Assembly: GCA_947259585.1 (NCBI GenBank)
Contig: CAMYMV010000009.1
Span: forward strand, 40,658-104,657
Direction of reading: 5' to 3'
DNA length: 64,000 bases
DNA from: an uncultured Gemmatimonadales bacterium
GTDB taxonomy: Bacteria; Gemmatimonadota; Gemmatimonadetes; Palauibacterales; Palauibacteraceae
The notes beneath the pieces were generated by a model, which saw only the letters and a list, made by a program, of their open reading frames with translations, did no database searches and had not been told where the DNA came from. A program made the position numbers and the translations under genes. Positions within the stretch are counted from its first letter, which is position 1; every line of letters starts with the position of its first letter. Shown here one piece after another: positions 9,981 to 47,493 of this stretch.

Positions 9981-10152
9981 GCCGGCCGCTCCGCGCGGTG
10001 GCCCCGGCTAGCGGTCCGGCGCCGCCGGCCGACCTTGACTCCGCCCGAGCGGGTTGGATAACGTTCGCCTCCCGGCGCGCAGCAGAGCGGTTCCCTCCCG
10101 GCGAACGCCTCGTGCCGAACTGGGTAGGATATCTCTCCGCACGCCCGACTGC

Positions 10153-17497: not shown

Positions 17498-17552
17498 CTT
17501 AAGAAACCTTAACGCTGTCTTCAGGCGGACTTAACGAGATTTCGTCTACGCT
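17498..17552 (+). promoter_or_regulatory. Island operator/promoter site B (TonB-DUF411-YHS operon)
   Basis: CTTAAG-N4-CTTAAC-N5-CTTCAG-N5-CTTAAC-N11-TACGCT. Confidence 0.65.
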
Positions 17553-25785: not shown

Positions 25786-25842
25786 GCGTTCGATTCTCCT
25801 GCGCTGGCGGCGTTAAAGAAGGACCGGCGGAAAGAGGCGTGA

Positions 25843-26583
25843 ATGCCGACTGCACCTACCACACAGGACGTGGTTCGCAGCGCCCACTGCGGGACTGGAG
25901 GGTCTGCCGCGCTGTTAGTCGAAACCACTCGGCGGCAGGATCTTCTGCGCGGCGTCTGGAAGGAGAATCCCGTCCTCGTTCAGCTTCTGGGCCTGTGCCC
26001 GGCGCTGGCCGTCACGAATACCGTGCGAAACGGCTTCGCCATGGGGCTCGCAACGGCCTTCGTACTCGTAAGCTCGAGTTTCTTCGTGTCGAGTCTCAAA
26101 CGTCTGATCCCACACGAGGCCCGCATTTCGTCCTTCGTGCTGATCATCGCCACCTTCGTGACCGTCGTCGACATCTTCATGGCGGCGATGGTGCCGGATG
26201 TTTCGAAGGCCCTCGGGCCTTTCGTCCCCCTCATCGTGGTCAACTGCATGATCCTCGGGCGACAGGAGGCGTTTGCGAGTCGCCGGCCAGTTCGCCGTTC
26301 GGTGCTTGACGCCACGGGTACCTCGACAGGCTTTCTCATTGCTCTGCTACTGATGGGCGGCTTTAGGGAGTTGATGGGAAGTGGGAGCCTGCTGGGCGTG
26401 CGGGTCATGCCCCATAACTTCGAGCCGTGGGTCATCATGGTCCTGCCGCCCGGCGGTTTCTTCACCCTGGGCTTCATCCTGCTTGCACTGAGTTGGACTC
26501 GGCTGCGAAAAGCAGAGACTGGCCGCATGACAAGACCGCGCCGATGGCCCCATGGCGTGCTGACCGAAAGGAGAGCAGCCTGA
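25843..26583 (+). CDS. RnfE/NqrD-family membrane subunit (orphan)
   Basis: WKENPVLVQLLGLCPALAVT...PFVPLIVVNCMILGRQEAFA is collinear with E. coli RsxE as I recall it. Confidence 0.88.
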   Translation: MPTAPTTQDVVRSAHCGTGGSAALLVETTRRQDLLRGVWKENPVLVQLLGLCPALAVTNTVRNGFAMGLATAFVLVSSSFFVSSLKRLIPHEARISSFVLIIATFVTVVDIFMAAMVPDVSKALGPFVPLIVVNCMILGRQEAFASRRPVRRSVLDATGTSTGFLIALLLMGGFRELMGSGSLLGVRVMPHNFEPWVIMVLPPGGFFTLGFILLALSWTRLRKAETGRMTRPRRWPHGVLTERRAA

Positions 26584-27158
26584 TGGGTGAGCTGTTCGCC
26601 ATATTCATCTCGGCATCGTTGGTCAACAACTTCGTCCTGGCGTACTTCGTGGGTCTCTGCCCGTTCTTTGGAGTTTCGAGGCAGGTATCCACCGCCGTCA
26701 GGATGGGCGGCGCGGTGACAGCCGTGATGCTCCTCACGTCCCTGGCCGTCTCCTTCCTGGAGGCTTTCCTACTGCCGCCCGTGCCTTTCCTTCGGCTCAT
26801 TTCGTACATCGTGGTTATCGCTTCGCTTGTACAGATCCTCGAGATGGCGGTCAAGAAGCTGAGCCCCGTGCTGTTCAGGGAGCTAGGGATCTTCTTGCCG
26901 CTCATTACGACGAACTGTGCCATTCTCTATCTGGGTCTGTTCCAGTACGCGCGCGGCTACGACTTCCTGCAAGGGATCTTCTTCGCGTTGGGAGCTGGAG
27001 CGGGCTTCACGCTCGCGCTCGTGCTAATGGCATCCATCCGACAGGGATCGGAGCTCGCTTCCGTTCCTGCCATCGCCCGGGACATGGGATTCGCGCTCAT
27101 CGTAGCCGGCAGCCTGTCTCTCGCGTTCATGGGTTTCTCCGGACTCTTCTCATCATGA
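26583..27158 (+). CDS. RnfA/NqrE-family membrane subunit (orphan)
   Basis: SLVNNFVLAYFVGLCPFFGVS...GIFLPLITTNCAILYLG...SLAFMGFSGLF. The ATG overlaps the upstream TGA (TGATG). Confidence 0.88.
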   Translation: MGELFAIFISASLVNNFVLAYFVGLCPFFGVSRQVSTAVRMGGAVTAVMLLTSLAVSFLEAFLLPPVPFLRLISYIVVIASLVQILEMAVKKLSPVLFRELGIFLPLITTNCAILYLGLFQYARGYDFLQGIFFALGAGAGFTLALVLMASIRQGSELASVPAIARDMGFALIVAGSLSLAFMGFSGLFSS

Positions 27159-27177
27159 ATCGCCGGCACGCCGCTCT

Positions 27178-27534
27178 ATGAAAGCGCCGTATCTCGGGAT
27201 CGTCTTCCTCGGCATCGTCGCAATTTTGAACGCGGCGATGATGATCGGGATGAGCCACATGATGGGCTCCCGTCGACCGACCTCTACCAAGGCCGAACCG
27301 TACGAATCCGGCATCCCGCCGCTCGGGGGAACTCGAGAACGATACTCGGTGAGTTTCTACATGGTAGCCGTGCTCTTCATCATCTTCGATATCGAAACGA
27401 TCTTCTTGATCCCGTGGGCGGTTGTGTTCCGGGGCCTGCCTCTGGGAGGGTTCCTCGCGATGATCCTCTTCCTGGCCGTCCTGGGTGTCGGTCTCGTGTA
27501 CGCCTGGAAGAAGGGAGCTCTCGAGTGGGACTGA
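27178..27534 (+). CDS. NuoA/ND3-family subunit (orphan)
   Basis: KAEPYESGIPPLGGTRERYSVSFYMVAVLFIIFDIETIFLIPWAVVF...GLVYAWKKGALEW. Confidence 0.88.
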   Translation: MKAPYLGIVFLGIVAILNAAMMIGMSHMMGSRRPTSTKAEPYESGIPPLGGTRERYSVSFYMVAVLFIIFDIETIFLIPWAVVFRGLPLGGFLAMILFLAVLGVGLVYAWKKGALEWD

Positions 27535-31908: not shown

Positions 31909-31963
31909 AGGCTAGGGAAGGGCGTGTTAAGTCAACCACAAATCGAGGTTAAGATTCGTTCAC
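31909..31963 (-). promoter_or_regulatory. Island operator/promoter site F-prime (EamA / YHS-membrane operon)
   Basis: Minus strand reads GTGAAC-N4-CTTAAC-N5-TTTGTG-N5-CTTAAC-N11-TAGCCT. Confidence 0.6.
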
Positions 31964-31990: not shown

Positions 31991-32045
31991 CCTAAGAAAT
32001 CTTATGACGTCCTTCAGGTCCCCTTAACAGCGATCCTCCTACAGT
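31991..32045 (+). promoter_or_regulatory. Island operator/promoter site F (YHS-SHOCT unit)
   Basis: CCTAAG-N4-CTTATG-N5-CTTCAG-N5-CTTAAC-N11-TACAGT. Confidence 0.65.
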
Positions 32046-32749: not shown

Positions 32750-32927
32750 ATGGTTGCGACCACGGCTCTCATTGCCGGCGGCCTTCTGGTTATTGTGACG
32801 GCAGTGACATTGTTGGCGACGAACGCGTGTCAGGGTAGGTCAGCCGAAGGAGGGAAGACTCAAAAACCTAAGGAGACGATACGCCCTTGGCGAGAACTAC
32901 AATCAGGGTTTCAAGGACCTGGTTTAG
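32750..32927 (+). pseudogene. Tandem paralogue of the SHOCT gene carrying a 1-nt frameshift
   Basis: DNA alignment to 32363-32671: between the shared GAACGCGTGTC and AGACGATACGC blocks the spacing is 43 nt in the first copy and 42 nt here. The SHOCT end (RRYALGENYNQGFKDLV*) is therefore in a different frame from the TM start. Confidence 0.55.
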
Positions 32928-34411
32928 GCTTGCCTGGCAGCGCGGATCGGGTCCGAATCTCCAACGCCGACCGCCCCTCCAGCGGCGGGTGTGGATGCCG
33001 GCATCCTCAACTCGAAGGTCGTGCCTGATCCGTTCGCACCACGGACGGAGACCGTGCCCCCGTGGCCTTCGACGATCGCCTTCACGATGGAGAGCCCAAG
33101 GCCAGAGCCGGGGCCAGCCCGCCGTCCAGCTTCGCCACGTGAGAAACGATCGAAGAGTTGAGCCTGCTCTTCGGCGGGGATGCCCGGCCCACTGTCCGAC
33201 ACCTCGATCACGACGTCTCCAGCCTCCCCTTCGTGGACTGCAAGGCGGATTCTCCCTCCGCTCGCGGCATACTTGACCGCGTTGTCCACGAGGTTGCCGA
33301 GCGCCCGCTCGATAAGGACCTGGTCTGCCTGCATCATGAGATCGATCTCCGCCTCCACATCGATCTCTGTCCCTGCAGACTTGGCCGCTCCACGGTACCT
33401 AGTGGCAGCCTTCTGAAGTAGTGCCGAGACTTGCAAGGGCTCGAGCACGGGCGCCAACCCGCCGCTTTCCCCGCGGGCAAGCATGATCAAATCGTCCGCG
33501 AGGGCTGATACGCTCTTCACGTCTTCGAGACTCTGCTCGAGAATGGCTTCATACTCCTCCAACGATCGGCGTCGACGTAGCGCGACTTCAACGTCGCCCC
33601 TGAGGACCGTTAGAGGCGTGCGGATCTCGTGCCCGACATCCGCGATGAAGCTACGCTGGGCCTCGAACGCCTCGTCGATCCGAGCAAGCATCGAATTGAG
33701 AACCGTAACCAGCCGTTCCATCTCGACGGTCTCGGCCGCAGCGTCGATGCGATGTTCATCTCCCGTCATCTCGATTCTCTCGGCCTGCTGGATCGTCTCC
33801 ATGACAGGCCGAACTGCGGAGCCTGCGAGCCACCAACCGAGCAGGAAGCTCACGCCAGTACCTAGCAGCGCGAGCACACCGAGCAGGTTTCGAAAGGTTG
33901 CTAGGACCTCGTACGCCTGCTCGGTCGAGACGATGACCTGAAGGAGATGGAGCTCGTGCTGCGGGCCCACGAGTCCGAGAGGATATAGTATGCCGCGGTA
34001 CCGTTCGCCCTCCCAATGGGTGTCGAACAGCTCGAGTTCCCCGGTGTTGACGACTCGCCACCGGAGCCGCTGGCTCAGAGGGAGGTCTTGCTCTCTGAGA
34101 TTGCGGGTACGCAGTACCGGTGCTCCCTCGTTGCTCCAGATCTGCGCGAAACGCTTCAGGACGGTTTCGGTACCCGGGCCAGCGGTTAGGAACAGTTCAT
34201 CGTGAAAATGAACCGTGCTGTCGGCCGAGGCTGCCGCGCCCGAGGCCTCGATAGACGCCAGACGCAGAAGCGTGCTGTCGATCTGAGCGAGCAGGAGATT
34301 GCGAAGCACGAGGTAGCCCACTGACGAGCCGATAACGGCCACCGCCAGGACGGCCAGGCCAAACCGGATGGCAAGTTTCCCTCGGAAGGAGCGCCGGAGC
34401 GCATTGATCAT
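32924..34411 (-). CDS. Heavy-metal-type sensor histidine kinase (CusS-like)
   Basis: Two TM helices flank a periplasmic domain. HAMP domain, H-box FIADVGHEIRTPLT, and HATPase_c blocks (NLVDNAVKY, DSGPGI, GSGLGLSIV) follow. Confidence 0.9.
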   Translation of the reverse strand: MINALRRSFRGKLAIRFGLAVLAVAVIGSSVGYLVLRNLLLAQIDSTLLRLASIEASGAAASADSTVHFHDELFLTAGPGTETVLKRFAQIWSNEGAPVLRTRNLREQDLPLSQRLRWRVVNTGELELFDTHWEGERYRGILYPLGLVGPQHELHLLQVIVSTEQAYEVLATFRNLLGVLALLGTGVSFLLGWWLAGSAVRPVMETIQQAERIEMTGDEHRIDAAAETVEMERLVTVLNSMLARIDEAFEAQRSFIADVGHEIRTPLTVLRGDVEVALRRRRSLEEYEAILEQSLEDVKSVSALADDLIMLARGESGGLAPVLEPLQVSALLQKAATRYRGAAKSAGTEIDVEAEIDLMMQADQVLIERALGNLVDNAVKYAASGGRIRLAVHEGEAGDVVIEVSDSGPGIPAEEQAQLFDRFSRGEAGRRAGPGSGLGLSIVKAIVEGHGGTVSVRGANGSGTTFELRMPASTPAAGGAVGVGDSDPIRAARQA

Positions 34412-35085
34412 TTCTCGACCCGACCGAGCCTGAAGCCGACGCCCCGCACGGTGAAGATGATCCTCTCTCGATCTCCCTCCTCGAGCTTCTTACGCAGGTT
34501 AGCCACGTGAACGTCTACTAGGTTCGTGCCTGGGTCGAAGCTCATGCCCCAGACGCGGTCCAGAAGCTCGAGGCGCTTTACGACCTGTCCCGGCTTTCTG
34601 ATCAGCGATTCCAAGAGCTTGAACTCGGTGGGCGTGAGGTCTATTGGGTTTCCCGCCCGTCGGACCTCGTGCAAGAGGCGGTCGAGCTCGACGTCCTCGA
34701 ATCGAAGCGTGCCCTCACCGATTGGCGCAGCGCGTCGTGCGAGCGCCCGAACCCGGGCCAGCAACTCCTCAAAATCGAACGGCTTGGTGAGATAGTCGTC
34801 CGCACCGACATCCAATCCGTGAACGACATCCTCTCGGGAGTCCCGCGCGGTGAGCATGAGGATCGGCGTGGAGTTTCCCTCCGCTCGCAGCTCGGACGTC
34901 ACGTGATACCCGCTCTTCTGGGGCATCATTACGTCGAGAACGAGCACGTCGTACTCGGTTACGTGCGCAAGCGCCACCGCTTCCACGCCGTCGCGAGCCA
35001 GATCAACAACGTGGCCTTCTTCCTTGAGTCCCTTGAGGACGAAGCGTGCCACACGAGCATCGTCCTCAGCCAATAAGATCTTCAT
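34408..35085 (-). CDS. OmpR-family response regulator (CusR/CopR-like)
   Basis: MKILLAEDD...DVLVLDVMMP...ILMLTARD...GADDYLTKPF, plus a winged-helix C-terminus (RVWGMSFDPGTNLVDVHVANLRKKL). It overlaps the kinase gene by 4 nt. Confidence 0.92.
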   Translation of the reverse strand: MKILLAEDDARVARFVLKGLKEEGHVVDLARDGVEAVALAHVTEYDVLVLDVMMPQKSGYHVTSELRAEGNSTPILMLTARDSREDVVHGLDVGADDYLTKPFDFEELLARVRALARRAAPIGEGTLRFEDVELDRLLHEVRRAGNPIDLTPTEFKLLESLIRKPGQVVKRLELLDRVWGMSFDPGTNLVDVHVANLRKKLEEGDRERIIFTVRGVGFRLGRVEK

Positions 35086-35199
35086 AAGTTATGAAACCGG
35101 CTCCTCTTACCGAGCTGAATCTACACCACACCTGGCCTATCGAGTTCTAATACCCCCTCCCAAGCGGCGGGTGCGGCGGGACACCATCCCGTTCTCAGC

Positions 35200-35254
35200 C
35201 TCAAGAGATCTTAACGAAAGCTTTGCGAAATCTTAAGAGTGACTTCCGCACCTT
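35200..35254 (+). promoter_or_regulatory. Island operator/promoter site G (weak -10)
   Basis: CTCAAG-N4-CTTAAC-N5-CTTTGC-N5-CTTAAG-N11-CACCTT. It lies about 370 nt upstream of the first gene start (35622). Confidence 0.5.
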
Positions 35255-35621
35255 GGAGTCGTTCGGTGCGGGGGGCACGCGCTGTCGGCGCGTTTACTCT
35301 CGCTCATGCTCGGTCGACGATTGGTCATTTGTGGCTGATCTGCGGGTTGAGGCTGACGTGAGAAGGAATGAGAGTTTTGGCGACAGCGGTCTACCGACTT
35401 CGAGTAGATCTTCGACAAGTGCCGGAGGGGGCCGAACGGGCCACATCTCACTGCCCCCCGCAGAGAGACCCTCCGGCCACCCTCCCCCCGAGAAGAACCT
35501 CACACCAGGGCCGATCTGTCGGAACGCAGCTTCCGTCGGTTCCCAAACTAGGCTTCCGAAGCAACGCGACGACTCAGTCGCCGCGGTGTGCCGGCAGCGG
35601 ACCGGCCGTAGAGGAGGAGCG

Positions 35622-36524
35622 ATGAAACTTGGAGTACGCGTTGGAGCGGCGGCTATGCTTGGGGGCACAGGCCTCTGGGGATGCGCTGGGGCGGACAACC
35701 CTACCGCCCTCGCCGACCTCGATCCTCAAGCGGACATCGAGATCCATGCCGATCGGGTGGAGACGTTCGACGAGGTGGAAGTGCACGTCCGGCTCACCGA
35801 GGGTGGCGGGCCCATGCACATGAACAGCGTGCATCTCGAGATCGAGCATGCCCTCGGCGGACCGCTTCGAGTCGTCGAGATGGAGGCGGCCGGAGATGAG
35901 TACGAGGCCCACGTGATGTTCTACGAGGACGGAGAGCACCACCTCCACCTGATGGGCGTGCCGGAGCGACATCGATTAGCAACCGAGATCGCGGAGGCGG
36001 AGGTCCAGGTCCACCGACAGCATACGGTTATCGGACCCTACTGGGTCGAGCTGGCCATGGCGCCCGCTCCCGCAATCGAGAACCTGCCTGCCGACATTTA
36101 CCTCCTTGTTTACGACCTGCACGACGACGGCCCGGGCGACCTGGTGGAAGGGCTGGAGCTTTCCGCAGAGATGCACACGCCATTCGGCCGCGAGTTGCCT
36201 CTGAGGTTCACCGAGCTGGCCCACGGCGAGTATGCGGCGAGATACGCGTTCGGAGCTTCGGGCGAGTACGACATGCACGTCGAGGTCTCCCTCGCGCAGG
36301 ACGAGGCAGAGGACGAGCACGCCGATGACGAGCATGCAGAGGATGAGCACGAGGCGGAGGACGAGCACACCGATAACGAGCGCGAGGAGGGAGACGAGCA
36401 TGCCGATGACGAGCATGCGGAAGACGAACATGCTGAGGGTGAGTTCCATATCCCGGTTCTGAGCTCGGATTCGGAAGGCGCTGAGAGTGACGGAACCGAC
36501 GCTGGAGGCGGTCATGGACATTGA
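35622..36524 (+). CDS. Lipoprotein with two Ig-like/YtkA-like repeats and a His/Asp/Glu-rich tail
   Basis: MKLGVRVGAAAMLGGTGLWGCAG lipobox. Two similar modules (...YEAHVMFYEDGEHHLHLMG / ...YAARYAFGASGEYDMHVEV) are followed by the tail DEAEDEHADDEHAEDEHEAEDEHTDNEREEGDEHADDEHAEDEHAEGEFH...GGGHGH. The ATG at 35622 follows GAGGAGGAG. Confidence 0.75.
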   Translation: MKLGVRVGAAAMLGGTGLWGCAGADNPTALADLDPQADIEIHADRVETFDEVEVHVRLTEGGGPMHMNSVHLEIEHALGGPLRVVEMEAAGDEYEAHVMFYEDGEHHLHLMGVPERHRLATEIAEAEVQVHRQHTVIGPYWVELAMAPAPAIENLPADIYLLVYDLHDDGPGDLVEGLELSAEMHTPFGRELPLRFTELAHGEYAARYAFGASGEYDMHVEVSLAQDEAEDEHADDEHAEDEHEAEDEHTDNEREEGDEHADDEHAEDEHAEGEFHIPVLSSDSEGAESDGTDAGGGHGH

Positions 36525-37674
36525 TGATCTGGCCAAGAGACTGAGGTTCCTGCTTGTGGCCGGGGCCGCCGCGATTGCGCTGTGCGGCCTGCCCCAGACC
36601 GCTTCAGCGCAGGAAACAGACGAAGAGGAAGAGGAAGAAGAACAGCCTGTCTTGCCCTCGACCGCTTTCGTGCTCAGCGGCTATGGGACGGTGGGCTGGT
36701 CCGCGTCCTCTGAGGAAGGGGGAGGGAATCTGTTCACGGCGAACTTCAATCCGATTTTCCTCTTCCAGTTCGAGGATCGTTTCCTGTTCGAGGCGGAGTT
36801 TGAATTCGAGCTCCAAGGCGGCGTGACGGAGACCGGGCTCGAGTACGCTCAGTTGGACGTCATTGCTACGGACTTCCTCGTGTTTGTGGGCGGCAAGTTT
36901 CTCCTTCCCTTTAACGTCTTCGGGGAGCGGCTTCACCCGACCTGGATCAACAAATTTCCGACATCCCCTCCGATCTACGGGCACCACATCTCGGGTTTCG
37001 GTGCCGATCCGCTCCTTCCGATCCTGTCCGACCTTGGTCTCATGGCGAGGGCCGCCGCGACGCCAGGTAGATGGTTGTTGGGCGGCAGCGCGTATATCTC
37101 CCAGGGTCCCGCGCTCGAAGAGCACGAAGAGGAAGAGGGCGGCGAAGAGCACGCTGATGAGGAGCTCCCGGAAATCGGCTTTCCAGGCTCATCCGGCGAC
37201 AACAACAAGAACAAATCCCTCGGACTACGCCTCGATTTCGCGCTTCCCCCCTGGATGGAGGTCAACTTCTCCGTCCTCAACGGGGATTATGATGAAGAAG
37301 GACTTCTGGATTTCACTGCGTACGGGGTGTCGGCGGAAGCCCGGACCAGCGGGTTCGAGGTCCGCGGCGAATTCATTCAGACTCGCCAGGAGATCGAGAC
37401 GGAGGAGGGATTCCCTGAACTGGTCCGAAACGGGTTCTACGCCCAGGCTGCCTATCGCTGGTGGAATTTCGAGCCCGTTCTTCGCTGGACTCAGATCTTC
37501 AACTCGGAGTTGGAGGGTGAGAAGGAGGAGGACGGCGCCCGACAGATGGGCTTCGGTTTGAACTACTGGCTCACGGCTTCCATTGCAATCATGGCCGGGT
37601 ACGAACTGAACCGAGAATCCGGGCTCCCATTGGATAACGACCGCTTCGTCATTCACGCCGCATACGGCTTCTAG
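36514..37674 (+). CDS. Outer-membrane beta-barrel (porin-like) protein
   Basis: Signal peptide (ALCGLPQTASAQ) and an acidic N-terminus (ETDEEEEEEEQ). The sequence has an alternating amphipathic pattern and ends in the aromatic terminus HAAYGF. Confidence 0.7.
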   Translation: MDIDDLAKRLRFLLVAGAAAIALCGLPQTASAQETDEEEEEEEQPVLPSTAFVLSGYGTVGWSASSEEGGGNLFTANFNPIFLFQFEDRFLFEAEFEFELQGGVTETGLEYAQLDVIATDFLVFVGGKFLLPFNVFGERLHPTWINKFPTSPPIYGHHISGFGADPLLPILSDLGLMARAAATPGRWLLGGSAYISQGPALEEHEEEEGGEEHADEELPEIGFPGSSGDNNKNKSLGLRLDFALPPWMEVNFSVLNGDYDEEGLLDFTAYGVSAEARTSGFEVRGEFIQTRQEIETEEGFPELVRNGFYAQAAYRWWNFEPVLRWTQIFNSELEGEKEEDGARQMGFGLNYWLTASIAIMAGYELNRESGLPLDNDRFVIHAAYGF

Positions 37675-37682
37675 GAGGGACG

Positions 37683-38114
37683 ATGGCATTTGACCAGATA
37701 AGAACGAAGAGTCGCCTTCTTCTGCTCGCGGCGGTCTGCAGCCCGCTGCTGGTGGCCAACGATGCGACGGCGCAGGCAGTGGATCCCATGCTGGTGGCAG
37801 AAGGCGCGGCCATGTACGGCGCTACGTGTGCGCGCTGCCACTACGCGCGCTCTCCGCTAGAGCGGTCGGACCGTCAGTGGGTTGTCATCATGAACCATAT
37901 GCGCGTTAGGGCAAACCTTACGGGCCAGCAGACCCGTAAGGTTCTGGCATTTCTGATGGCAACGAACGGCCAGCCTTCCCCTGGGCAGCAGGCCTCGTCT
38001 ACGGCGCGGGACGAGGAGGGGGAGCGAACGGCGGCCGGTGATGGCCAAGTCGAGCGACACGCGGCTGAGACAGCTAGTCGACGACGTTTCCAAGGAACCG
38101 CAGGTCCGCGATAG
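37683..38114 (+). CDS. c-type cytochrome-like protein (single CxxCH)
   Basis: Signal peptide plus the CARCH heme-binding motif. The ATG follows GGAGGGA. Confidence 0.7.
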   Translation: MAFDQIRTKSRLLLLAAVCSPLLVANDATAQAVDPMLVAEGAAMYGATCARCHYARSPLERSDRQWVVIMNHMRVRANLTGQQTRKVLAFLMATNGQPSPGQQASSTARDEEGERTAAGDGQVERHAAETASRRRFQGTAGPR

Positions 38115-38159
38115 CGGGCCTGAGAGGCTTAGAGCTCATGGGAGGAGGTTGAGATCCCT

Positions 38160-38645
38160 TTGCTTCGCAAGCGACGACATCTTTTGACGATACCCGTCCT
38201 TGGACTGGTAGCTCCTTCGGCGATTATGGGGAGCGTCCTGTTTAGAGACTACTCGGAGACGCATTGGCGCGAGTCCGCCACGTCTCTGACCACGGCACCG
38301 GCCGGATCTCGCACTGGTGTGGGCGCGCTCCGGAGTGCGAGTGAGAGTATTCTGCATTTAGTCGGAAAGAACGGCGAAGAGGTATTCAAGCGCCAGTGTG
38401 CCGTCTGCCATGGAGACACGGGCCGGGGCGACGGCCCGGCTTCCGCGGCGCTCAGACCGAAGCCGGCCGATTTGACCGATTCCGAGAAAATGGGTGAGTA
38501 CACCCAGGGGAAGTTGGTGGCGGTGATCGGCAAGGGGAAAGGCATGATGCCGGCCTTCGGCGCCGTCTTGAGCCCGGAGGATCTTGAGGATGTCGCGGGC
38601 TATGTGCACTCACTTTCTGAAGGCGAGGAAACCGGGGATAAGTAG
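38160..38645 (+). CDS. Class I c-type cytochrome
   Basis: GEEVFKRQCAVCHGDTGRGDGPA...GKGMMPAFG...LSPEDLEDVAGYV. The TTG start follows GGGAGGAGG. Confidence 0.82.
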   Translation: MLRKRRHLLTIPVLGLVAPSAIMGSVLFRDYSETHWRESATSLTTAPAGSRTGVGALRSASESILHLVGKNGEEVFKRQCAVCHGDTGRGDGPASAALRPKPADLTDSEKMGEYTQGKLVAVIGKGKGMMPAFGAVLSPEDLEDVAGYVHSLSEGEETGDK

Positions 38646-38687
38646 AGATCCTCACGCACAGCTAAGCAGGAGAAGAGGAGGGCTGAC

Positions 38688-39179
38688 ATGTGGCGGAACG
38701 ATCGTGCCGGCGTTGGACTGTTGGCACTCCGGCTAGGGCTTGGCTTTGTTTTTGTCGCCCATGGTTGGGTCAAGCTGTTTGGGGGCCAGATCTCGTTCAT
38801 ACAGGACATGCTGGAGATCGTAGGCGTTACGTTGCCCGATCCCTTGCTGGTCTTGGTTGCAGTCGTAGAGCTCCTGGGCGGGCTGGCGCTGATTAGCGGT
38901 TTGTTGGCGAGACCGTTCGCCGCAGTGCTTGCAGCTGAAATGTTGATCACCGTCGCCTTGTTCCACGCAGGGCAAGGCTTTTTCATCGTCGCACTTCCCA
39001 ACGCGCCACTAGCCTACGGGTTTGAGTTTCACGTGGCCTTGATCAGTGGCCTCATCTGTATCGCCTTGGCCGGTCCCGGAGCTTTGGCTCTCAGTTCCCG
39101 CGTCGCGCGTGCTGCCACTAGCGCTGAGGCAACGCCCACGGCTCAGAGTAAAGAGACCCGCGATGCTTCCGGCGCTTGA
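38688..39179 (+). CDS. DoxX-family membrane protein
   Basis: VGLLALRLGLGFVFVAHGWVKLFGG plus four TM helices. Confidence 0.85.
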   Translation: MWRNDRAGVGLLALRLGLGFVFVAHGWVKLFGGQISFIQDMLEIVGVTLPDPLLVLVAVVELLGGLALISGLLARPFAAVLAAEMLITVALFHAGQGFFIVALPNAPLAYGFEFHVALISGLICIALAGPGALALSSRVARAATSAEATPTAQSKETRDASGA

Positions 39180-39604
39180 CTGCAAGGCTCTCGAAATGGT
39201 GATCCGGGAGGAGCTTGCAGACGAGCCGCATTCCGCCTGAAACCGCAAGAAAAACACCGTCCATCAGATTTGGCCAGCACCCGCAGTGCCGCGCATCTCC
39301 GCACAATTGAGAAGCAAGACGCTGACGGTATCGGTAGCCGGCCAGGCCTCCGCAAGCGACTCTGAGGGCAAGACTGGAATTACTCCTGAAATGACGAATC
39401 GACGAGAAGGCCTGTCGCTCGCCAGCTGGTGGAACCGGCCAGATCCGACGAGATCATCATCGAGCGACGGCGAAGCAGCCTCGAGTGGGGCGTCATTGGG
39501 CTCGTGATCGGACTGGCGGCGGGTCTGGGTCTCTGCTTGCTACGTCAGGATCCTGCGTCGTCATGAAGCCACGATCGGTGGCTGAAGAAACGAGCGAGAG
39601 ATGG

Positions 39605-39658
39605 GTGAAGAAATCTTATGCTTCGATTGCGAAAAACTTTAGGGGTCCGGGCTAGCTT
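39605..39658 (+). promoter_or_regulatory. Island operator/promoter site H (RND efflux operon)
   Basis: GTGAAG-N4-CTTATG-N5-ATTGCG-N5-CTTTAG-N10-TAGCTT. Confidence 0.6.
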
Positions 39659-39764
39659 GTGGCGAAGTACCACACGGACTCGAACCTACGCTCGCCAGAA
39701 CGAGAAACGCCGGAGCGGACGGAGAGCTCTACGAGATGATGATCGACGAAAGAACAATCGGCGC

Positions 39765-41042
39765 ATGAAAGCTGCGCGCATTCTGCAGGCCTTCTTGCCC
39801 CTGGCCGTTACGGCTGCCCTTCAGGCCGGTCCCGGTATCTCGCAGACTACCGCCGGTCACTTGTCGGTCGACGAGGCCGTGTCCCTCGCCAGGGAAGCGA
39901 ATCCCGCACTCAGGGCCGCGAGGATGCGTGCGGATGCGGCAGCCGAGCGGATACCCCAGGCAGGCGCACTGCCGAATCCGACCCTTGGTTTTGGGCTCGT
40001 CAACCGCCAGTTCGCGGACTTCGGGTCGACCGAAGAGCGCATGCTACAGAACCGCTTCGAGATCTCTCAGAGGTTCCCGTGGCCTGGGACGTTGAGCTCC
40101 TCGAAGGACCGGGCGGAGCACCTCTCCGTGGCTAGCGATCTAGAGATGGAGGAAACCGAGCAGGCGCTGATCGCTCGGGTCAAGACGGTCTACTACCGAC
40201 TCGCTTTCATGGATCGGGCGCTCGAGATCATGGAGGAGACGCGCGAGCTGCTGCGCGAGTTCCTGGATGTTTCCTCGACGCTCTACTCGGTGGGTGAGGG
40301 CCTGCAGCAGGACGTGCTTCAGGCTCAGGTCGCTGTCGCTTCCATGACCGAGGACATCACGGTAGTGGAGCAGGACCGTCTCGCCATGGCGGCTCGCCTC
40401 AACGCACTGCTGGGGAGAGATGCGACGATTCCGATTGGCGACCTCGATCTACCTCCACCGGGTGGTCAACTTCCGCCTCCTGACACGCTCATGGCTCTCG
40501 CCGACGTGCAGCGTCCTGCACTCAGCGCGGCCCGGGAGAGGGCGCTGGCCGCGGAGGCGGGATACCGTGCCGCCAAAAGGTCGATCTACCCTGACTTCGC
40601 GCTGCTCTTCGCTTACGGGCAGCGGCCCGAGTTCAACGACCTGGCCACAATCATGATCGGGATCAGCCTTCCGCTTTGGGCTGGCAGCAGCCAGCTGCCC
40701 CAGCGTCGCGAGATGCTGGCCATGCAGGCCATGGAAGAAGCGAGGGCGATCGATCTCTACAACGAGACGTTCGCCCGAATAGCAGAGCTCAGGGCCGAGG
40801 CGGAGCGCGACCGACGGCTGGTATCGCTCTACGACACATCGGTTCTTCCGCAGGCGCGGGCGGCCGTCGAATCGGCGCTCTCCGCGTATCGCGTGGGAAA
40901 AGTCGACTTCATGACGCTGGTACAAAACGAACTTACGGTGAACCGCTTCGAGATCGAAGGGGTTCGTCTGGCGGCTGACTACCAACGGGCTTTGGCTGAG
41001 CTCGAGGCTCTCGTAGCAGCCGATCTAGGAGGTGCACAATGA
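39765..41042 (+). CDS. TolC-family outer-membrane efflux protein (CusC/CzcC-like)
   Basis: Signal peptide MKAARILQAFLPLAVTAAL, then two OEP repeats. The start is trimmed to the ATG at 39765. Confidence 0.88.
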   Translation: MKAARILQAFLPLAVTAALQAGPGISQTTAGHLSVDEAVSLAREANPALRAARMRADAAAERIPQAGALPNPTLGFGLVNRQFADFGSTEERMLQNRFEISQRFPWPGTLSSSKDRAEHLSVASDLEMEETEQALIARVKTVYYRLAFMDRALEIMEETRELLREFLDVSSTLYSVGEGLQQDVLQAQVAVASMTEDITVVEQDRLAMAARLNALLGRDATIPIGDLDLPPPGGQLPPPDTLMALADVQRPALSAARERALAAEAGYRAAKRSIYPDFALLFAYGQRPEFNDLATIMIGISLPLWAGSSQLPQRREMLAMQAMEEARAIDLYNETFARIAELRAEAERDRRLVSLYDTSVLPQARAAVESALSAYRVGKVDFMTLVQNELTVNRFEIEGVRLAADYQRALAELEALVAADLGGAQ

Positions 41043-42328
41043 GGTGGTTCCCGAACCGCCAGCTGAGGTATTCAGTAGGCCTGATCCTGATATTCGTGCT
41101 GAGCGCGGCTTGCGGCGAAGGCGATGCTTCTCAGATCGGAGAGGCCTCGGGAGAGCAGGGCACCGGTACGGCCGCGCCGGCCGAGGAGATGGATGCGGGA
41201 GCAGGCGATCGGCAGCCCGTCCACCTCTCGGCGGAGCAGGAGCGCGCACTGGGCGTCGTCTATGTCACCGTCGGTCGAGAGACGTTGACGCGATCGATCC
41301 GCACGATCGGGCGCATCGAGGCGGCCGAGCCGAACGTCGCCGACATCACACCGAAGATCGAGGGGTTCATCGAACAGCTGTTCGTGGCCACGACCGGCGA
41401 GACGGTCCGCCGGGGCCAGCGCCTTCTGACCCTCTACAGTCCTGAGCTGGTAGCCGCGCAGGAGGAGCTCCTCACGGCGCGGCGGCTCGCCGCCGGGATC
41501 GACTCCGCTGCGGGCGAATCGTGGAGGGCCGCCCGTGCGATGCTCGAGGCCTCGCGTCGTCGGCTCGTCTACTGGGACATCACGACTGAGCAGATCGACC
41601 AACTCGAGAGCACGGGAGAAGTGACGAAGACGCTTACCCTGGTGGCGCCCGTCAACGGGATTGTGCTGGAGAAGGACGTCTGGGAGGGGCAGCGGGTGAT
41701 GCCGGGGATGCGGCTCTACCGCATCGCCGATCTCACCGAGGTGTGGGTCGAGGGCGAGGTGTTCGAGCAGGACATCAAGTTCGTCGTGGAGGGCGCGCAG
41801 GCGCACATGGAAGTCGCCGCCTATCCGGGCGAGCACGTGATGGGCGTCGTGAGCTTCGTCTACCCGACCGTGGATGTGCAAAGCCGGACGAACCGGGTGC
41901 GTGTGACGGTGCCGAACCGCGATCTCCGGCTGAAGCCGGGGATGTTCGCCACGATTTTCTTCGACGTCCAGGTCGCCGACGAAGCGCTCACGGTGCCGAT
42001 GGAGGCCGTGGTCGTGACGGGCGAGCGCAACCTCGTGTTCTCGCGTGACGAGGACGGCATGCTGGAGGCTCGCGAGGTCGTGCTGGGCGCCCGGGCAGGC
42101 GAGCGGATCGCAATCCTCTCCGGTCTGTCGGAGGGTGAGCGCATCGTTGGCTCCGCCAACTTCCTCGTCGACGCGGAATCGCGCCTCGGAGGCGCCGGCG
42201 GCATGCCCGGCATGCAGCACGCCGGCCACGGGACAGTGCTCGAGTCCGAGTCGCAGGAGGCCGGCCAGCGCTCCGATACGACGGAGGCCCAGAAGCAGGG
42301 CGACGCGGAGCACCAAGACCATGATTAA
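41039..42328 (+). CDS. RND efflux periplasmic adaptor (CusB/CzcB-like)
   Basis: HlyD_D23-type pattern (LTLYSPELVAAQEELL, LVAPVNGIVLEKDV, GMFATIFF). The tail is His-rich. The gene is coupled by ATGA to the upstream gene. Confidence 0.9.
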   Translation: MRWFPNRQLRYSVGLILIFVLSAACGEGDASQIGEASGEQGTGTAAPAEEMDAGAGDRQPVHLSAEQERALGVVYVTVGRETLTRSIRTIGRIEAAEPNVADITPKIEGFIEQLFVATTGETVRRGQRLLTLYSPELVAAQEELLTARRLAAGIDSAAGESWRAARAMLEASRRRLVYWDITTEQIDQLESTGEVTKTLTLVAPVNGIVLEKDVWEGQRVMPGMRLYRIADLTEVWVEGEVFEQDIKFVVEGAQAHMEVAAYPGEHVMGVVSFVYPTVDVQSRTNRVRVTVPNRDLRLKPGMFATIFFDVQVADEALTVPMEAVVVTGERNLVFSRDEDGMLEAREVVLGARAGERIAILSGLSEGERIVGSANFLVDAESRLGGAGGMPGMQHAGHGTVLESESQEAGQRSDTTEAQKQGDAEHQDHD

Positions 42329-45300
42329 CCGCGTTATTGCCTGGTCGCTCGAGAACCGTTTCCTGGTTCTCCTGGCCACCGCCGCCGTGATAGGTGGCGG
42401 GGTCTGGGCCATGATGACCACGCCGCTGGACGCGATCCCGGACCTGTCGGACGTGCAGGTGATCGTCCAGACGGACTTCCGGGAGCAGGCTCCGGATATC
42501 GTCGAGGACCAGATCACCTACCCGATCGCCTCGGAGATGCTGAAGGTCCCCGGAGCGAGGGTGGTTCGCGGATTCTCCTTCTTCGGCCTCAGCCTCGTCT
42601 ACGTCATTTTCGAGGACGGGACCGACATCTACTGGGCTCGCTCCCGTGTGCTCGAGTACCTGAACGGGATCCGGCAGCAGCTCCCGCCGGCGGTGGAGCC
42701 TGTCCTCGGTCCGGATGCCACCGGCGTCGGCTGGGTGTTCGAGTACGTGCTGGAATCCGACAGCCTGAACCTGGCCGAGCTTCGCACCCTACAGGACTGG
42801 TACATCCGTTACCAGCTCACCGCGGTGCCCGGGGTCTCGGAGGTGGCGAGCCTGGGCGGGTTCGTGCGGCAGTATCAGGTCGAAGTGGATCCCGAGCGGC
42901 TCCGGGCGTTTGGCATCCCCGTGACGCGCGTCGCTGACGCGATCGGCGCCCACAACATCGACATCGGAGCCCGTGTGCTAGAGATGGGCGGCCGCGAATA
43001 CATGATCCGCGGCCTTGGTTACCTCGAGGGCACCGAGGACATCCGGAACGTGGCCGTGGGCGCGACGCCGAACGGTACGCCGATCCGGGTCGCCGACGTC
43101 GCCACGGTGCAGCTCGGCCCGGCCCCGAGGCGAGGCGCGGCCGATCTCGACGGTCGGGGAGAGGTCGTCGCCGGGATCGTCGTCATGCGCTTCGGGTCGG
43201 ACGCGCTCAAGACGATCGAGGCCGTGAAGGAACGGGTCGAGGAGATCAACCGCGGCCTACCCGCCGGAACGCAGCTGCGCACGGCCTACGACCGTAGCGA
43301 CCTGATACATAGGGCCATCGAGACGCTCCGCGACAAGCTGCTCGAGGAGTCCCTCATCGTGGCCGCCGTCGCAGTCGTGTTCCTCCTCCACTTCCGTTCG
43401 GCGCTCGTGGCGATCGTCACGTTGCCCGTTGGCATTCTCATCTCCTTTATCGTGATGCGCTGGATCGGCGTGAACGCGAACATCATGAGCCTCGGCGGGA
43501 TCGCGATCGCGATCGGCGCCATGGTGGACGGCGCCATCGTGATGATCGAGAACATGCACAAGCATCTGGAGCGGGCCGAGCCGGGCGCCTCGCGCTGGGA
43601 GATCGTATACGAGAGCGCCCGGCAGGTGGGACCGCCGCTCTTCTATTCGCTTCTCATCATCACGTTCAGCTTCTTGCCGGTCTTCGCGCTGGAGCAGCAG
43701 GAGGGGCGCCTTTTCAAACCGCTCGCCTACACGAAGACGTTCGCGATGGCCGGCTCCGCATTCCTGGCGATCACCCTGGTCCCGGTCCTGATGGGCTACC
43801 TGATCCGCGGCCGGGTACGTCCCGAGTCCCGAAACCCGGTGAACCGCGTCCTGCGCACGCTGTACCGACCAGTTATCCAGTTCGCGACCCGCCGTCCGTG
43901 GATCGTCGTCGGCGCTGCCGTTCTGGTCCTCGCTGCGACGGTCCTTCCCTGGCAGCGCCTGGGCAGCGAGTTCATGCCTCCTCTCCACGAGGGATCCGTG
44001 CTCTTCATGCCGACGACAGTTCCGGGCGTATCGATCGCGCAGGCGCGTGAGATCATGCGCTACCAAGACAGCGTGCTGGCTTCGTTCCCGGAAGTGGAGA
44101 CCGTGCTCGGAAAGGCGGGACGCGCCCGGACCGCGACCGATCCCGCTCCGCTCGACATGTTCGAGACCACGATCACTCTCCGGCCGAAGGAGGAGTGGCG
44201 CCCAGGCCTGACCTATAACGAGCTGATCGCGGAAATGGATCAGGCGGTCCGGATGCCGGGGGTGACGAACGCCTGGACGATGCCGATCAAGGGCCGGATC
44301 GACATGCTCGCCACGGGGGTCCGCACGCCCGTCGGCATCAAGATCTTCGGTCCCGACCTTGATTCCCTGCAGGCTCTGGGTGAGCGCGTGGAGCGGATCG
44401 TCCAGGAGGTCCCCGGCACACGGAGCGCGTTCGCCGAGCGCGGCGTCTCCGGCTACTACGTGGACATCGATGTCGACCGTATCGAGGCTTCCCGCTACGG
44501 CCTCAATGTCGGCGACATCCATAAGGCGATCATGGCTACCGTGGGCGGGATGACCGCCTCGATCACCGTCGAGGGCCGGGAGCGGTACGAAGTCAACGTC
44601 CGTTATCCACGGGAGCTGAGAGACAACCCGGAGAAGCTGCGCGAAGTGCTTATCCCGGCCATGAGCGGCGCTCAGATCCCACTAGGTCAAGTAGCGAGCA
44701 TCTCCGTGCTTCAGGGGCCGATGGCCGTGAAGACGGAGGACGCGTTCCCAGTAACCATCATCTTCGTGGACATCGGCGAGCGCGACGTGGGTGGCTACGT
44801 GCAAGAGGCTAAGCGACTCGTGAGCGATCGGCTGGTTCTGCCGGCCGGGTACACGCTCGTGTGGAGCGGTCAGTACGAGTTTATGGAGCGCGTCGCGCAG
44901 CGCATGAAGATCGTCGTTCCCGTCACACTCGGGATCATCTTCCTCCTCCTCTACCTCAACTTCCGCGGACTCGCCGAGTCGCTGATCGTCATGCTGGCGC
45001 TTCCGTTCTCCCTCGTCGGCGGCATCTGGTTCCTCTGGCTGCTGGGCTACAACACGAGCGTCGCCGTTTGGGTCGGGTTCATAGCGCTTGCTGGTGTGGC
45101 CGCCGAGACCGGCGTCGTGATGTTGATCTACCTCGACGAGGCTTTTCACCGCAGGAGCCTGGAAGGGCGCATGAGTTCGGCCAGCGACGTGGCGGAGGCG
45201 GTCAGGGAGGGGGCGCTCGAGCGCCTAAGGCCCGTCGTGATGACAGTGACGGCTATCACGGCCGGCCTCGCCCCGATCCTCTGGAGCTCGGGCACAGGCG

Positions 45301-45482
45301 CTGACGTCATGAAGCGGATCGCCTCGCCGATGGTGGGCGGCATGATCAGCGCCACGATTCTCACGCTCATCGTGATCCCCGCGATCTACCTGCTGTGGCG
45401 GTCCTGGCAGGTCAAGCGACGGCCGGAGGCGCCAGTCGAGGAAGCGCTCCGCGACGAGATGGCGCTCGTTCCGGCCGAGTAG
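42321..45482 (+). CDS. Heavy-metal efflux RND permease (CusA/CzcA family)
   Basis: MINRVIAWSLENRFLVLLAT...SLGGIAIAIGAMVDGAIVMIENM...; about 1053 aa with 12-TM RND architecture. The start at 42321 overlaps the adaptor gene's 3' end. Confidence 0.94.
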   Translation: MINRVIAWSLENRFLVLLATAAVIGGGVWAMMTTPLDAIPDLSDVQVIVQTDFREQAPDIVEDQITYPIASEMLKVPGARVVRGFSFFGLSLVYVIFEDGTDIYWARSRVLEYLNGIRQQLPPAVEPVLGPDATGVGWVFEYVLESDSLNLAELRTLQDWYIRYQLTAVPGVSEVASLGGFVRQYQVEVDPERLRAFGIPVTRVADAIGAHNIDIGARVLEMGGREYMIRGLGYLEGTEDIRNVAVGATPNGTPIRVADVATVQLGPAPRRGAADLDGRGEVVAGIVVMRFGSDALKTIEAVKERVEEINRGLPAGTQLRTAYDRSDLIHRAIETLRDKLLEESLIVAAVAVVFLLHFRSALVAIVTLPVGILISFIVMRWIGVNANIMSLGGIAIAIGAMVDGAIVMIENMHKHLERAEPGASRWEIVYESARQVGPPLFYSLLIITFSFLPVFALEQQEGRLFKPLAYTKTFAMAGSAFLAITLVPVLMGYLIRGRVRPESRNPVNRVLRTLYRPVIQFATRRPWIVVGAAVLVLAATVLPWQRLGSEFMPPLHEGSVLFMPTTVPGVSIAQAREIMRYQDSVLASFPEVETVLGKAGRARTATDPAPLDMFETTITLRPKEEWRPGLTYNELIAEMDQAVRMPGVTNAWTMPIKGRIDMLATGVRTPVGIKIFGPDLDSLQALGERVERIVQEVPGTRSAFAERGVSGYYVDIDVDRIEASRYGLNVGDIHKAIMATVGGMTASITVEGRERYEVNVRYPRELRDNPEKLREVLIPAMSGAQIPLGQVASISVLQGPMAVKTEDAFPVTIIFVDIGERDVGGYVQEAKRLVSDRLVLPAGYTLVWSGQYEFMERVAQRMKIVVPVTLGIIFLLLYLNFRGLAESLIVMLALPFSLVGGIWFLWLLGYNTSVAVWVGFIALAGVAAETGVVMLIYLDEAFHRRSLEGRMSSASDVAEAVREGALERLRPVVMTVTAITAGLAPILWSSGTGADVMKRIASPMVGGMISATILTLIVIPAIYLLWRSWQVKRRPEAPVEEALRDEMALVPAE

Positions 45483-46912: not shown

Positions 46913-47046
46913 ACCCGTAGTTGGTTCAGGGTCGCCGGACCCGCGGAAACTAGCCACAGCACGCGGGACCGACGGCCTTTCTTCACCATCGCCAAGCTTT
47001 GATACTTCCCACTCTCAGACTCGCGGAGGATCCCTTGACCAACAGA

Positions 47047-47493
47047 ATGGTGCTCATTGCCGTTGCCGTATTTGCTGCTGCTCCACTCTCGGCGATGGGG
47101 CAGGAGGCTCAGGGCCCGGAGAACGTCGTTCGCGCGTTCCATGAGGCACTCGCCGCCGGCGACTCCGTGAGGGCGCTGGAGCTGCTGGCGGAGGACGTGG
47201 TGATCTACGAGTCCGGGGGAGTGGAAGCCTCACGGGAGGAGTACCGGTCGCACCACCTGCCAGCCGACATCGCGTTCGCAAGCTCGACGGAGCGAGAAGT
47301 GACTCTTGAGCGGTCAGGCAGGAGCGCTGACGTCGCGTGGGTGCTCAGCCGGTCGACGACGACCGGCACGTTCAGAGAGCAGGAGATCAACAGCATCGGG
47401 ACGGAGACGATACTGCTCGAACTTACACCCGACGGATGGCGGATCCGGCACATCCATTGGTCGAGTCGCAGAGCGTCGCCGCCGGAGGATTAG
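47047..47493 (+). CDS. Secreted NTF2-like (SnoaL/DUF4440-type) protein
   Basis: Signal peptide, then VVRAFHEALAAGDSVRALELLAEDVVIYESGG...GWRIRHIHWS. Confidence 0.7.
   Translation: MVLIAVAVFAAAPLSAMGQEAQGPENVVRAFHEALAAGDSVRALELLAEDVVIYESGGVEASREEYRSHHLPADIAFASSTEREVTLERSGRSADVAWVLSRSTTTGTFREQEINSIGTETILLELTPDGWRIRHIHWSSRRASPPED

Follow-up and report, generated by a model that had tools for sequence, protein, structure and literature searches.

A porin and c-type cytochrome encoded together in copper islands of Gemmatimonadota, a possible Cu(I) oxidase of the outer membrane

In a 64,000-nucleotide (nt) stretch of DNA from an uncultured Gemmatimonadales bacterium (contig CAMYMV010000009.1, positions 40,658 to 104,657; hereafter the window), we identified a tightly packed set of five genes, g1 to g5, encoding a His/Asp/Glu-rich lipoprotein, an outer-membrane porin, a monoheme c-type cytochrome, a class I cytochrome c, and a DoxX-family membrane protein. 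Comparison with related loci shows that the five genes are not one conserved unit. Their core is the porin (g2) with its c-type cytochrome (g3); DoxX, a run of DEH repeats in the lipoprotein, and a poly-Glu N-terminus of the porin are lineage-specific. Our preferred reading, to which we give a little less than an even chance, is that the genes form an envelope operon under copper control. Its functional core would be a cytochrome-porin split over two genes, probably an oxidase of Cu(I) that delivers electrons to the respiratory chain. We found no description of such a module in the literature searched.

Under this reading, the g3 cytochrome would act at the periplasmic face of the g2 porin, Cu(I) would be oxidized to Cu(II) at or in the porin, and the electrons would pass to a terminal oxidase. 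The anchored cytochrome g4 would relay electrons between the porin site and the inner-membrane respiratory chain, with DoxX, and a cytochrome b in relatives, as the likely quinone-side partners. The lipoprotein g1, translationally coupled to the porin, would capture or hand over copper. Expression would probably be driven by a divergent CopRS-like two-component system via a TCTTAA direct-repeat operator, and a structured leader might tune it. The module would thus be a heme-based counterpart of PcoA/PcoB or CueO with a Cyc2-like build. Copper is the presumed substrate because of the copper context of the genes, the CopRS-like regulators, and the YtkA-like lipoprotein.

The five genes and their predicted proteins

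The five plus-strand open reading frames (ORFs) at 35622-39179 bear out the initial annotation, which had described five tightly packed genes behind an operator site. Gene g2 (36514..37674, plus strand) starts at ATG 36514 according to an alignment with 52 homologs, within the codons for the final His-Gly-His-stop of g1, and overlaps the end of that gene by 11 nt. A GTG at 36487 was rejected as the start because the homologs begin at ATG 36514. Gaps of 8, 45, and 42 nt follow g2, g3, and g4, respectively. The predicted mature N-terminus of g2 reads QETDEEEEEEEQ, and the protein ends in the aromatic HAAYGF. Its AlphaFold2 (AF2) model has a predicted local distance difference test (pLDDT) score of 79.6, about 16 transmembrane strands by DSSP, and a 40-residue loop between strands 5 and 6. 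Foldseek searches with the model returned OmpT, OmpU, PorB, OmpC, OprP, and OprO at E values of 1e-12 to 1e-10, with values of about 1e-10 for OprP (2o4v) and OprO (4rjw, 4rjx). As modeled, g2 is an OprP/OmpU-like 16-strand porin whose L3 loop folds inward and whose last residue is aromatic. The acidic N-terminus, the HAAYGF end, and the barrel fold annotated earlier therefore all stand, with the qualification that the poly-Glu stretch of the mature N-terminus is confined to the closest relatives. A sequence search of the PDB with g2 gave generic porin matches only, no CXXCH motif is present in g2, and neither g2 nor any of 53 family members matches the Pfam CopB family (PF05275).

Judged by its alignments, the g2 family is unusually conserved for a porin: 314 homologs were found, mostly from Gemmatimonadota where a source is named, and the best 120 listed are 53-91% identical. 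The strongest conserved block, GKFLLPFGVFGERLHPTWINKFPTxPPIYGHH, is the loop between strands 5 and 6, at the position of the L3 eyelet, and H150 and H166 of g2 are invariant in the aligned set. In the next external loop, L4, an acidic insert that contains His and varies in length precedes a conserved FPASSxDNNxxK.

The adjacent gene, g3 (37683..38114, plus strand), encodes a monoheme c-type cytochrome with a single CARCH motif, a following HMRVR, and a low-complexity tail. Its Pfam matches to cytochromes are weak, a PDB sequence search returned generic cytochrome matches only, and a homolog search yielded at least 9 proteins. Alignment with fused diheme proteins identifies g3 as the N-domain of the family's usual diheme cytochrome. 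The sequence before the heme motif reads EGAAMYGATCARCH, against a family consensus of G-A-x-V-Y-G-x-x-C-G-R-C-H, and the motif continues as CARCH-YARSPLE, with Pro-Leu-Glu at +5 to +7. No remnant of the diheme C-domain was found after g3. The possibility that g4 (38160..38645, plus strand) is that leftover domain was rejected, as g4 is a different class I cytochrome. It has a CAVCH motif followed by MMPAF and an N-terminal hydrophobic anchor or signal, exceeds the Pfam cut-offs for Cytochrome_CBB3 (53 bits vs 27; 4e-14) and Cytochrom_C (42 bits vs 21.3), and is closest to a second cytochrome of a related locus, L015 (35% identity). The last gene, g5 (38688..39179, plus strand), encodes a DoxX-family integral membrane protein (PF07681, 66.8 bits vs a cut-off of 23.6; 3e-18) that falls below the cut-off of the HvfX equivalog NF050144 (37.7 bits vs 80). 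The CARCH protein, the CAVCH class I cytochrome c, and the DoxX protein of the initial annotation are thus all present, with g4 and g5 above their Pfam cut-offs.

The lipoprotein gene g1 (35622..36524, plus strand) is preceded at 5 nt by the ribosome-binding site GGAGGAG. Its signal terminates in the lipobox LWGC, and the protein contains 26 His, 75 Asp plus Glu, and one Cys, with the GGGHGH end that had been annotated confirmed in the translation. In the AF2 model (mean pLDDT 83.9), two beta-sandwich domains exceed 94. Both had been called YtkA/FixH-like immunoglobulin (Ig) modules; domain 1 alone is YtkA-like, and domain 2 matches filamin-type Ig domains. A PDB sequence search with g1 gave generic filamin matches only, and a fold search gave generic tandem Ig domains only. 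Among 55 relatives, whose named sources are mostly Gemmatimonadota, the lipobox Cys is kept in 54, and conservation extends to 11 His and the GHGH end. Conserved ligands are restricted to His and Glu; no Met is conserved, nor any Cys besides that of the lipobox. Such a ligand set, read from the alignment, fits Cu(II), that is, the product of the proposed Cu(I) oxidation.

Within g1, a tandem array with a 15-nt period (36312..36433, plus strand; about 7 copies by Tandem Repeats Finder) encodes seven (A/E)(D/E)DEH units, where six DEH repeats had been counted before. The copy number differs among close relatives, and the array is absent from most of the g1 family. In the AF2 model, the repeats sit between the penultimate strand and the conserved last strand, GEFHIPV, which rejoins domain 2; the region is therefore a loop insertion and not the tail that it had been taken for. 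When a genome collection was scanned with g1, nine of ten loci, from Actinomycetota and other bacteria, were discarded as low-complexity matches to the DEH repeats.

Conservation, natural fusions, and electron flow

The lipoprotein, porin, and cytochrome genes recur in this order in eight further contigs (loci L001, L011/L012, L013/L014, L015, L016/L017, L018, L019/L020, and L021), with the lipoprotein and porin genes overlapping by 11 nt in most loci and a porin-cytochrome gap of 8-12 nt. In most of them, the cytochrome is one diheme protein of 203-226 amino acids (aa), with CGRCH, RSPLE, and HMRVR in its N-domain and ACLGCH, GPSL, and SMMP in its class I C-domain. Synteny, which the initial annotation had proposed to test, therefore holds for three of the genes; DoxX and separate g3 and g4 genes are confined to the window and its close relatives L016/L017 and L022. 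The last of these, on a ninth contig, keeps the porin, cytochromes, and DoxX and has lost g1. At its positions 9925-10010, the leader element described below is followed by no more of g1 than its last ~27 nt, after which the porin gene begins, which amounts to a clean g1 deletion.

Most Gemmatimonadota neighborhoods of the set are copper-related. The Cu(I)/Ag(I) efflux genes cusCBA lie beside it in the window, L001, L011, L016, and L019/L020, a P-type ATPase gene is nearby in L013, L016, L018, and L022, and a multicopper oxidase with CopB is found near the set in L018. PCYCGC proteins flank it in L013 and L015, the former also with DUF411, and cupredoxins and YHS proteins are near it in several loci, with CopA also among the neighbors in relatives; a PCYCGC-type protein was looked for in the window and not found. 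Cytochrome b genes adjoin the set in L015, L016, and L018. In L021, only mercury and HMA genes stand beside it.

Outside Gemmatimonadota, a search of plasmid proteins identified orthologous barrels on pKD02 of Alteromonas macleodii and pGLAAG01 of Glaciecola, ~34-35% identical over 88-89% of their length. The gene that follows encodes in each case a diheme cytochrome (174-176 aa) built from the same two domains, and both barrels retain the His of L3 and an acidic L4 loop rich in His. Both pairs adjoin CopC, CopD, DUF4440-type proteins, and a Met-rich protein. A 118-aa PCYCPDC protein is encoded 5' of each porin (L026, 7501-7857; L028, 8485-8841); the one upstream of the Alteromonas porin was considered as a g1 relative and rejected, being unrelated to g1. 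The plasmid search also returned a 758-aa protein of Legionella anisa in which three N-terminal class I cytochrome domains precede a C-terminal barrel, with an orthologous diheme cytochrome encoded next. The stretch examined around this Legionella locus contains no copper genes.

A search of 1.8 billion representative proteins gave 288 barrel relatives at E<1e-30, most of which have coiled-coil N-extensions and no heme motif; two are fusions to heme domains. The first, P0236 (415 aa), found on two independent contigs of 37% GC, matches g3 over residues 23-80 (41% identity, E 4e-16) and g2 over residues 103-415 (34% identity, E 7e-45), L3 block included. Its operon (L029) continues with a cytochrome c that is 36% identical to g4 (E 2e-21), a 47-aa ORF, a COX2-like protein, COX1, Sco, and COX2. 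In the second, P0295 (515 aa), the barrel is joined to a g4-like heme domain (35% identity, E 2e-14); Rieske, cytochrome b, and cytochrome c genes precede the fusion gene, and a CsoR-type gene lies two genes downstream. With the Legionella protein, these make three independent fusions, which argue that barrels of this subfamily work physically with c-type heme domains at their periplasmic N-terminus. Because of the same fusions, g2, g3, and g4 may be regarded as components of a single electron path. They also strengthen the proposal, made in the initial annotation, of an envelope module for metal capture and redox chemistry, as do the operon links to a heme-copper oxidase and to Rieske and cytochrome b genes.

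These comparisons bear on whether there is a functional unit at all. Each protein belongs to a broad, common superfamily, and several Pfam scores are sub-threshold, so that the adjacency of a stress porin, a lipoprotein, and respiratory cytochromes of housekeeping function might be fortuitous. We regard this as very improbable, given a gene order, usually with the same 11-nt overlap, that is conserved across divergent contigs, a porin-cytochrome pair that is conserved across phyla, and three independent fusions of barrel and heme genes.

As for the direction of electron flow, Cu(I) oxidation is preferred because the link of the L029 operon to a terminal oxidase favors oxidation of a donor. Alternatively, the set might be a cupric reductase, in which electrons from quinol, relayed by cytochrome b or DoxX and then by g4 and g3, would reduce g1-held Cu(II) to Cu(I), the sole form that CusCBA exports. 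The direct adjacency of the set to cusCBA in five of the neighborhoods listed above, the retained Cu(I) Met triad of CusA, the nearby cytochrome b or Rieske genes, and conserved g1 ligands that suit Cu(II) would all be in keeping with such an enzyme. We nevertheless find it unlikely: it leaves the outer-membrane porin without a role, its direction is opposite to that to which the wiring of the fused homolog P0236 to a terminal oxidase points, and the extra periplasmic Cu(I) would be hazardous. Moreover, the examined stretches of L013, L015, L018, and L021 contain the set but not cusCBA.

We give the same low probability to a role in copper supply for enzymes, in which copper would enter through the porin and be chaperoned by the YtkA-like lipoprotein in the manner of CtaK or PCuAC, and the cytochromes would set its redox state for insertion into heme-copper oxidases or other copper enzymes. 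CuA assembly is the only experimentally known role of YtkA (PMC9145763, PMC13344008), and a few g1-family members have weak PCuAC, FixH, or P19-type matches. Oxidase-related genes also accompany some loci: in L013 the set is followed by a CcoG-like Fer4_5 protein, COX2-like proteins, and a YHS/HMBD ATPase, and Sco and COX genes come after the P0236 fusion. However, the window unit is flanked by a two-component system of the heavy-metal type and by an efflux pump, in a large resistance island, and such neighbors as multicopper oxidase with CopB, CusCBA, and CsoR are marks of copper excess. Carriage on Alteromonas metal-resistance plasmids likewise fits resistance better than supply.

Several points also weigh against Cu(I) oxidation as we propose it. 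The case is built from genes, predicted folds, and genomic context, and a passive porin alone cannot export copper against a gradient. In the hidden Markov model (HMM) searches suggested with the initial annotation, Cytochrom_C and DoxX came out above their cut-offs, but the window's own g1 and g2 fall below the gathering thresholds of YtkA (PF13115; 22.3 bits vs 25.9) and Porin_4 (22.4 bits vs 27), whereas their families do match: YtkA in 53 of 55 aligned g1 relatives at E<=0.01 (best 2.8e-14) and Porin_4 in 49 of 53 g2-family members. The His/Glu-only ligands of g1 would favor Cu(II) or other hard metals over Cu(I), and the lipoprotein may be dispensable, given its loss in L022. The cytochrome b and Rieske links are compatible with electron flow either way. 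Since most of the wider barrel family is without a heme domain, cytochrome coupling is a trait of the subfamily and not of the family as a whole. Finally, DoxX proteins are found in copper operons, and the DoxX protein of one copper operon tested was dispensable (PMC11626156).

The regulatory region and the metal island

Upstream of the five genes lies an operator-like direct repeat, CTTAA-N17-CTTAA (35210..35236), with a weaker middle unit that gives an 11-bp register. The pattern has 5 matches in the window against 0.26 expected by chance, and the repeat is kept in all five related leaders. Other copies are at 17508-17534 (plus strand), 31927-31953 (minus strand), and 32001-32027 (plus strand); one precedes TonB_C/DUF411/YHS genes, and two are near an EamA gene. 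This distribution suggests that one response regulator controls several island promoters. Two minus-strand genes are divergent from the operon. The first encodes a CopS/CusS-like sensor histidine kinase (32924..34411; HisKA and HATPase_c domains) and the second a CopR/CusR-like response regulator of the OmpR family (34408..35085; Response_reg and Trans_reg_C domains). In NCBIfam, the two come closest to the heavy-metal sensor kinase TIGR01386 (261 bits vs a cut-off of 293) and to TIGR01387 of the CopR subfamily (231 bits vs 279), respectively, both just under the cut-off. The 11-bp register of the operator fits OmpR/PhoB-type binding, and the divergent regulator would be the probable ligand of the repeat.

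The leader that follows (35237-35621) is 385 nt long, close to the ~370 nt initially annotated as possibly regulatory, and that suggestion has gained ground: the leader is conserved and holds an invariant, structured, non-coding element. Two blocks are invariant while their flanks diverge. One is a G-run block, GTTCGGTGCGGGGGGC (35261..35276, plus strand), near the presumed 5' end of the leader; the other is a Y-shaped 61-nt element (35419..35479, plus strand) consisting of a closing helix and two hairpins. Within the first, GCGGGGGGC is invariant in 5 relatives and complementary to a C-run (35451-35463) within one hairpin of the Y element, with which it might pair. The predicted transcription start is near 35266-35270. 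The Y element is 94% identical across 5 loci, in the midst of strongly diverged flanking sequence. The structure prediction proposed in the initial annotation gave the same fold in all five, at -34 to -39.5 kcal/mol, and the few variable positions are in loops or give G-U pairs.

Other explanations of the element were considered. A small coding ORF across it was rejected, as there is no frame with a start codon 5' of the element in all five loci, and an intrinsic terminator was rejected, as no consistent U-tract follows the hairpin. An Rfam scan of 34900-39700 gave no match at E<=1, a covariance model (R1) run over the window and 11 loci recovered no copies beyond the five known, and an exact 20-mer scan of metagenome contigs for the leader element added one new locus only. 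The element is thus limited to the window's lineage, and its five loci include L022, which is without g1. The copies vary too little to show covariation, and an RNA function is plausible. We regard the Y element and its complementary G-run, on sequence and predicted folding, as a candidate new cis-regulatory RNA.

The regulators vary by locus, being CopRS-like in some and sigma-54-dependent and NtrC-like in others. A sigma-54 scan of L001, which carries a sigma-54-dependent activator, found one good site, TGGTACGGACGTTGC, at 9907-9921, directly 5' of the lipoprotein gene; the same scan of L021 gave nothing convincing. The set seems to have been placed under different regulators in different lineages.

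On its other side, the five-gene unit is followed by a true resistance-nodulation-division (RND) Cu(I)/Ag(I) efflux pump on the plus strand, as initially annotated, so that the unit stands between this pump and the CopRS-like system. The pump comprises cusC (39765-41042), cusB (41039-42328), and cusA (42321-45482), with OEP and HlyD_D23 domains among its proteins; CusA matches TIGR00914 at 1160 bits against a cut-off of 701. The best PDB match of CusA is the Escherichia coli protein, and three Met align to M573, M623, and M672 of that protein (chain 3t51_A), preserving the Met triad. Neither a terminator nor a second operator was found between the five-gene unit and cusCBA. The gap between DoxX and cusC (39180-39764) looks like a deletion scar: a Cys-rich small-ORF remnant at 39115-39237 is 54% identical over 41 aa to an intact ORF of L022. 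In L016, a cytochrome b gene and a gene for an Ig-anchored protein lie between DoxX and cusC; both are absent from the window, where no remnants of them were found.

The metal island spans ~14 to 54 kb of the window and includes a DUF411 protein, YHS proteins, an LTXXQ protein, a CopA-type ATPase with HMA domains, a cupredoxin, and a CsoR-type repressor, as well as an ArsR-family regulator beside a second P-type ATPase. The G+C content falls from ~0.68 to ~0.61 near position ~14000 and stays lower over the metal genes, a shift that may mark the island boundary; no tRNA gene was found in the whole window. At 25411-27534, the CopA-type ATPase gene is followed directly by that of the cupredoxin and then by genes for Rnf/Nqr-type membrane subunits and a 118-aa NuoK-like protein (27178-27534), the last named by synteny with L016, in which the arrangement is kept. 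The Rnf/Nqr/NuoK-like genes are an odd respiratory-like set within a copper island. A DUF4440/SnoaL_3 protein is encoded at 46999-47493; the same family adjoins the set in L011, L018, and L019 and the porin-cytochrome pair of the Alteromonas plasmids, and is thus a recurrent partner. At 52717-53811 on the minus strand, a gene combines MtrA (tetrahydromethanopterin methyltransferase subunit A) with a pterin-binding DUF4346 domain, unexpected beside metal ATPase genes.

Significance and comparison with known systems

In the current view, copper is detoxified in the periplasm by multicopper oxidases such as CueO and PcoA, chaperones, and Cus-type pumps. If the Cu(I) oxidase reading is right, an outer-membrane, heme-based module would be a new route to copper detoxification, and the cytochrome-porin design known from iron oxidizers would have been reused for another metal. 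In a wider form of this proposal, possible but rather doubtful in our view, g2 and g3 with their fused and plasmid-borne relatives would be an unrecognized family of outer-membrane cytochrome-porins that oxidize Cu(I) and pass its electrons to the respiratory chain, a copper counterpart of Cyc2 spread across phyla on copper islands and plasmids, with the Gemmatimonadota form distinguished by a YtkA-like copper-capture lipoprotein and a structured RNA leader. The natural split and fused forms offer a test case for how a single heme couples to a porin, and the presence of the family in cultivable Alteromonas strains puts genetics within reach. In Gemmatimonadota, a phylum that has received little study, the family is also a marker of copper islands, and the invariant leader element would add a candidate new cis-regulatory RNA in a metal operon.

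The closest parallel in build is with iron oxidation by Cyc2 in Acidithiobacillus ferrooxidans and in neutrophilic iron oxidizers. In the rus operon of A. ferrooxidans, the gene order is cyc2-cyc1-orf-coxBACD-rus, and L029 is alike in running from a fused cytochrome-porin through a class I cytochrome c and a small ORF to COX2 and COX1. Cyc2 is defined as a 16-strand OprO/OprP-like porin with an N-terminally fused monoheme CXXCH domain, with AXPXFAR[Q/K][T/Y] 5 residues upstream of CXXCH and PXL 4 residues downstream (PMC8406198). Similarly, g2 is predicted to be a 16-strand OprO/OprP-like barrel with a small monoheme c-type partner, and P0236 fuses a monoheme domain to the barrel N-terminus as Cyc2 does. 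In the window, by contrast, barrel and heme domain are separate genes with the heme gene downstream, the usual partner of this porin is diheme, a YtkA-like lipoprotein is added, and the context is copper resistance rather than iron lithotrophy. As g3 is without the PXFAR[Q/K][T/Y] motif and its PXL is out of register, we regard the pair as a different family of the same construction. An identity of g2 and g3 with Cyc2 was rejected on the absence of the signature from g3.

The same parallel raises the question of the metal. The set might oxidize or reduce another metal, such as Fe(II) as in Cyc2, Mn, or Ag, and owe its place in copper islands to co-selection or metal cross-talk. The architecture and the L029 operon order do match Cyc2/rus iron oxidation (PMC8406198), the His/Glu ligands of g1 are not copper-specific, and the examined stretch of the Legionella locus is free of copper genes. 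We consider this somewhat less likely even than a cupric reductase or a copper-supply function, for g3 is without the Cyc2 signature, the pair stands among copper genes in most Gemmatimonadota loci (L021, with mercury and HMA genes only, apart) and on both Alteromonadaceae plasmids, and the adjacent regulators are CopRS-like or CsoR-type.

In its presumed chemistry, Cu(I) to Cu(II), the proposed oxidase resembles PcoA/PcoB (CopA/CopB) and CueO, and it shares with the former the pairing, in a copper island, of a periplasmic redox protein with an outer-membrane barrel that has acidic or His-rich disordered segments. Here, however, the redox partner is a heme c protein and not a multicopper oxidase, and g2 is a 16-strand porin that does not match the PcoB/CopB family. 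L018 has a multicopper oxidase with CopB next to the set, so that neither system is a redundant copy of the other.

The nearest known relative of the lipoprotein is the copper-trafficking CtaK (YtkA) of Bacillus subtilis, itself a lipoprotein, which ends in EEEHSHHH (PMC9145763, PMC13344008). As with CtaK and the YcnJ YtkA domain, g1 probably belongs to the PF13115 family. It is a lipoprotein with an Ig fold and conserved His, and its DEH repeats and GHGH end may be compared with the acidic, His-rich tail of CtaK. It differs in its second, filamin-like Ig domain, in having no conserved Met, and in being encoded with a porin and cytochromes in a diderm, within a resistance island and not among oxidase assembly genes.

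MtrCAB, PioAB/MtoAB, and the Pcc conduits of Geobacter resemble the set in that a barrel, a periplasmic cytochrome, and an outer-membrane lipoprotein are encoded together. A conduit of this type was rejected for the window, where g3 and g4 have one heme motif each and the barrel has ~16 strands. The Mtr and Pcc conduits use 8-12 hemes, barrels of 20-26 strands, and a multiheme lipoprotein, whereas here there are one or two hemes, a 16-strand barrel with an L3 loop, and a heme-free lipoprotein.

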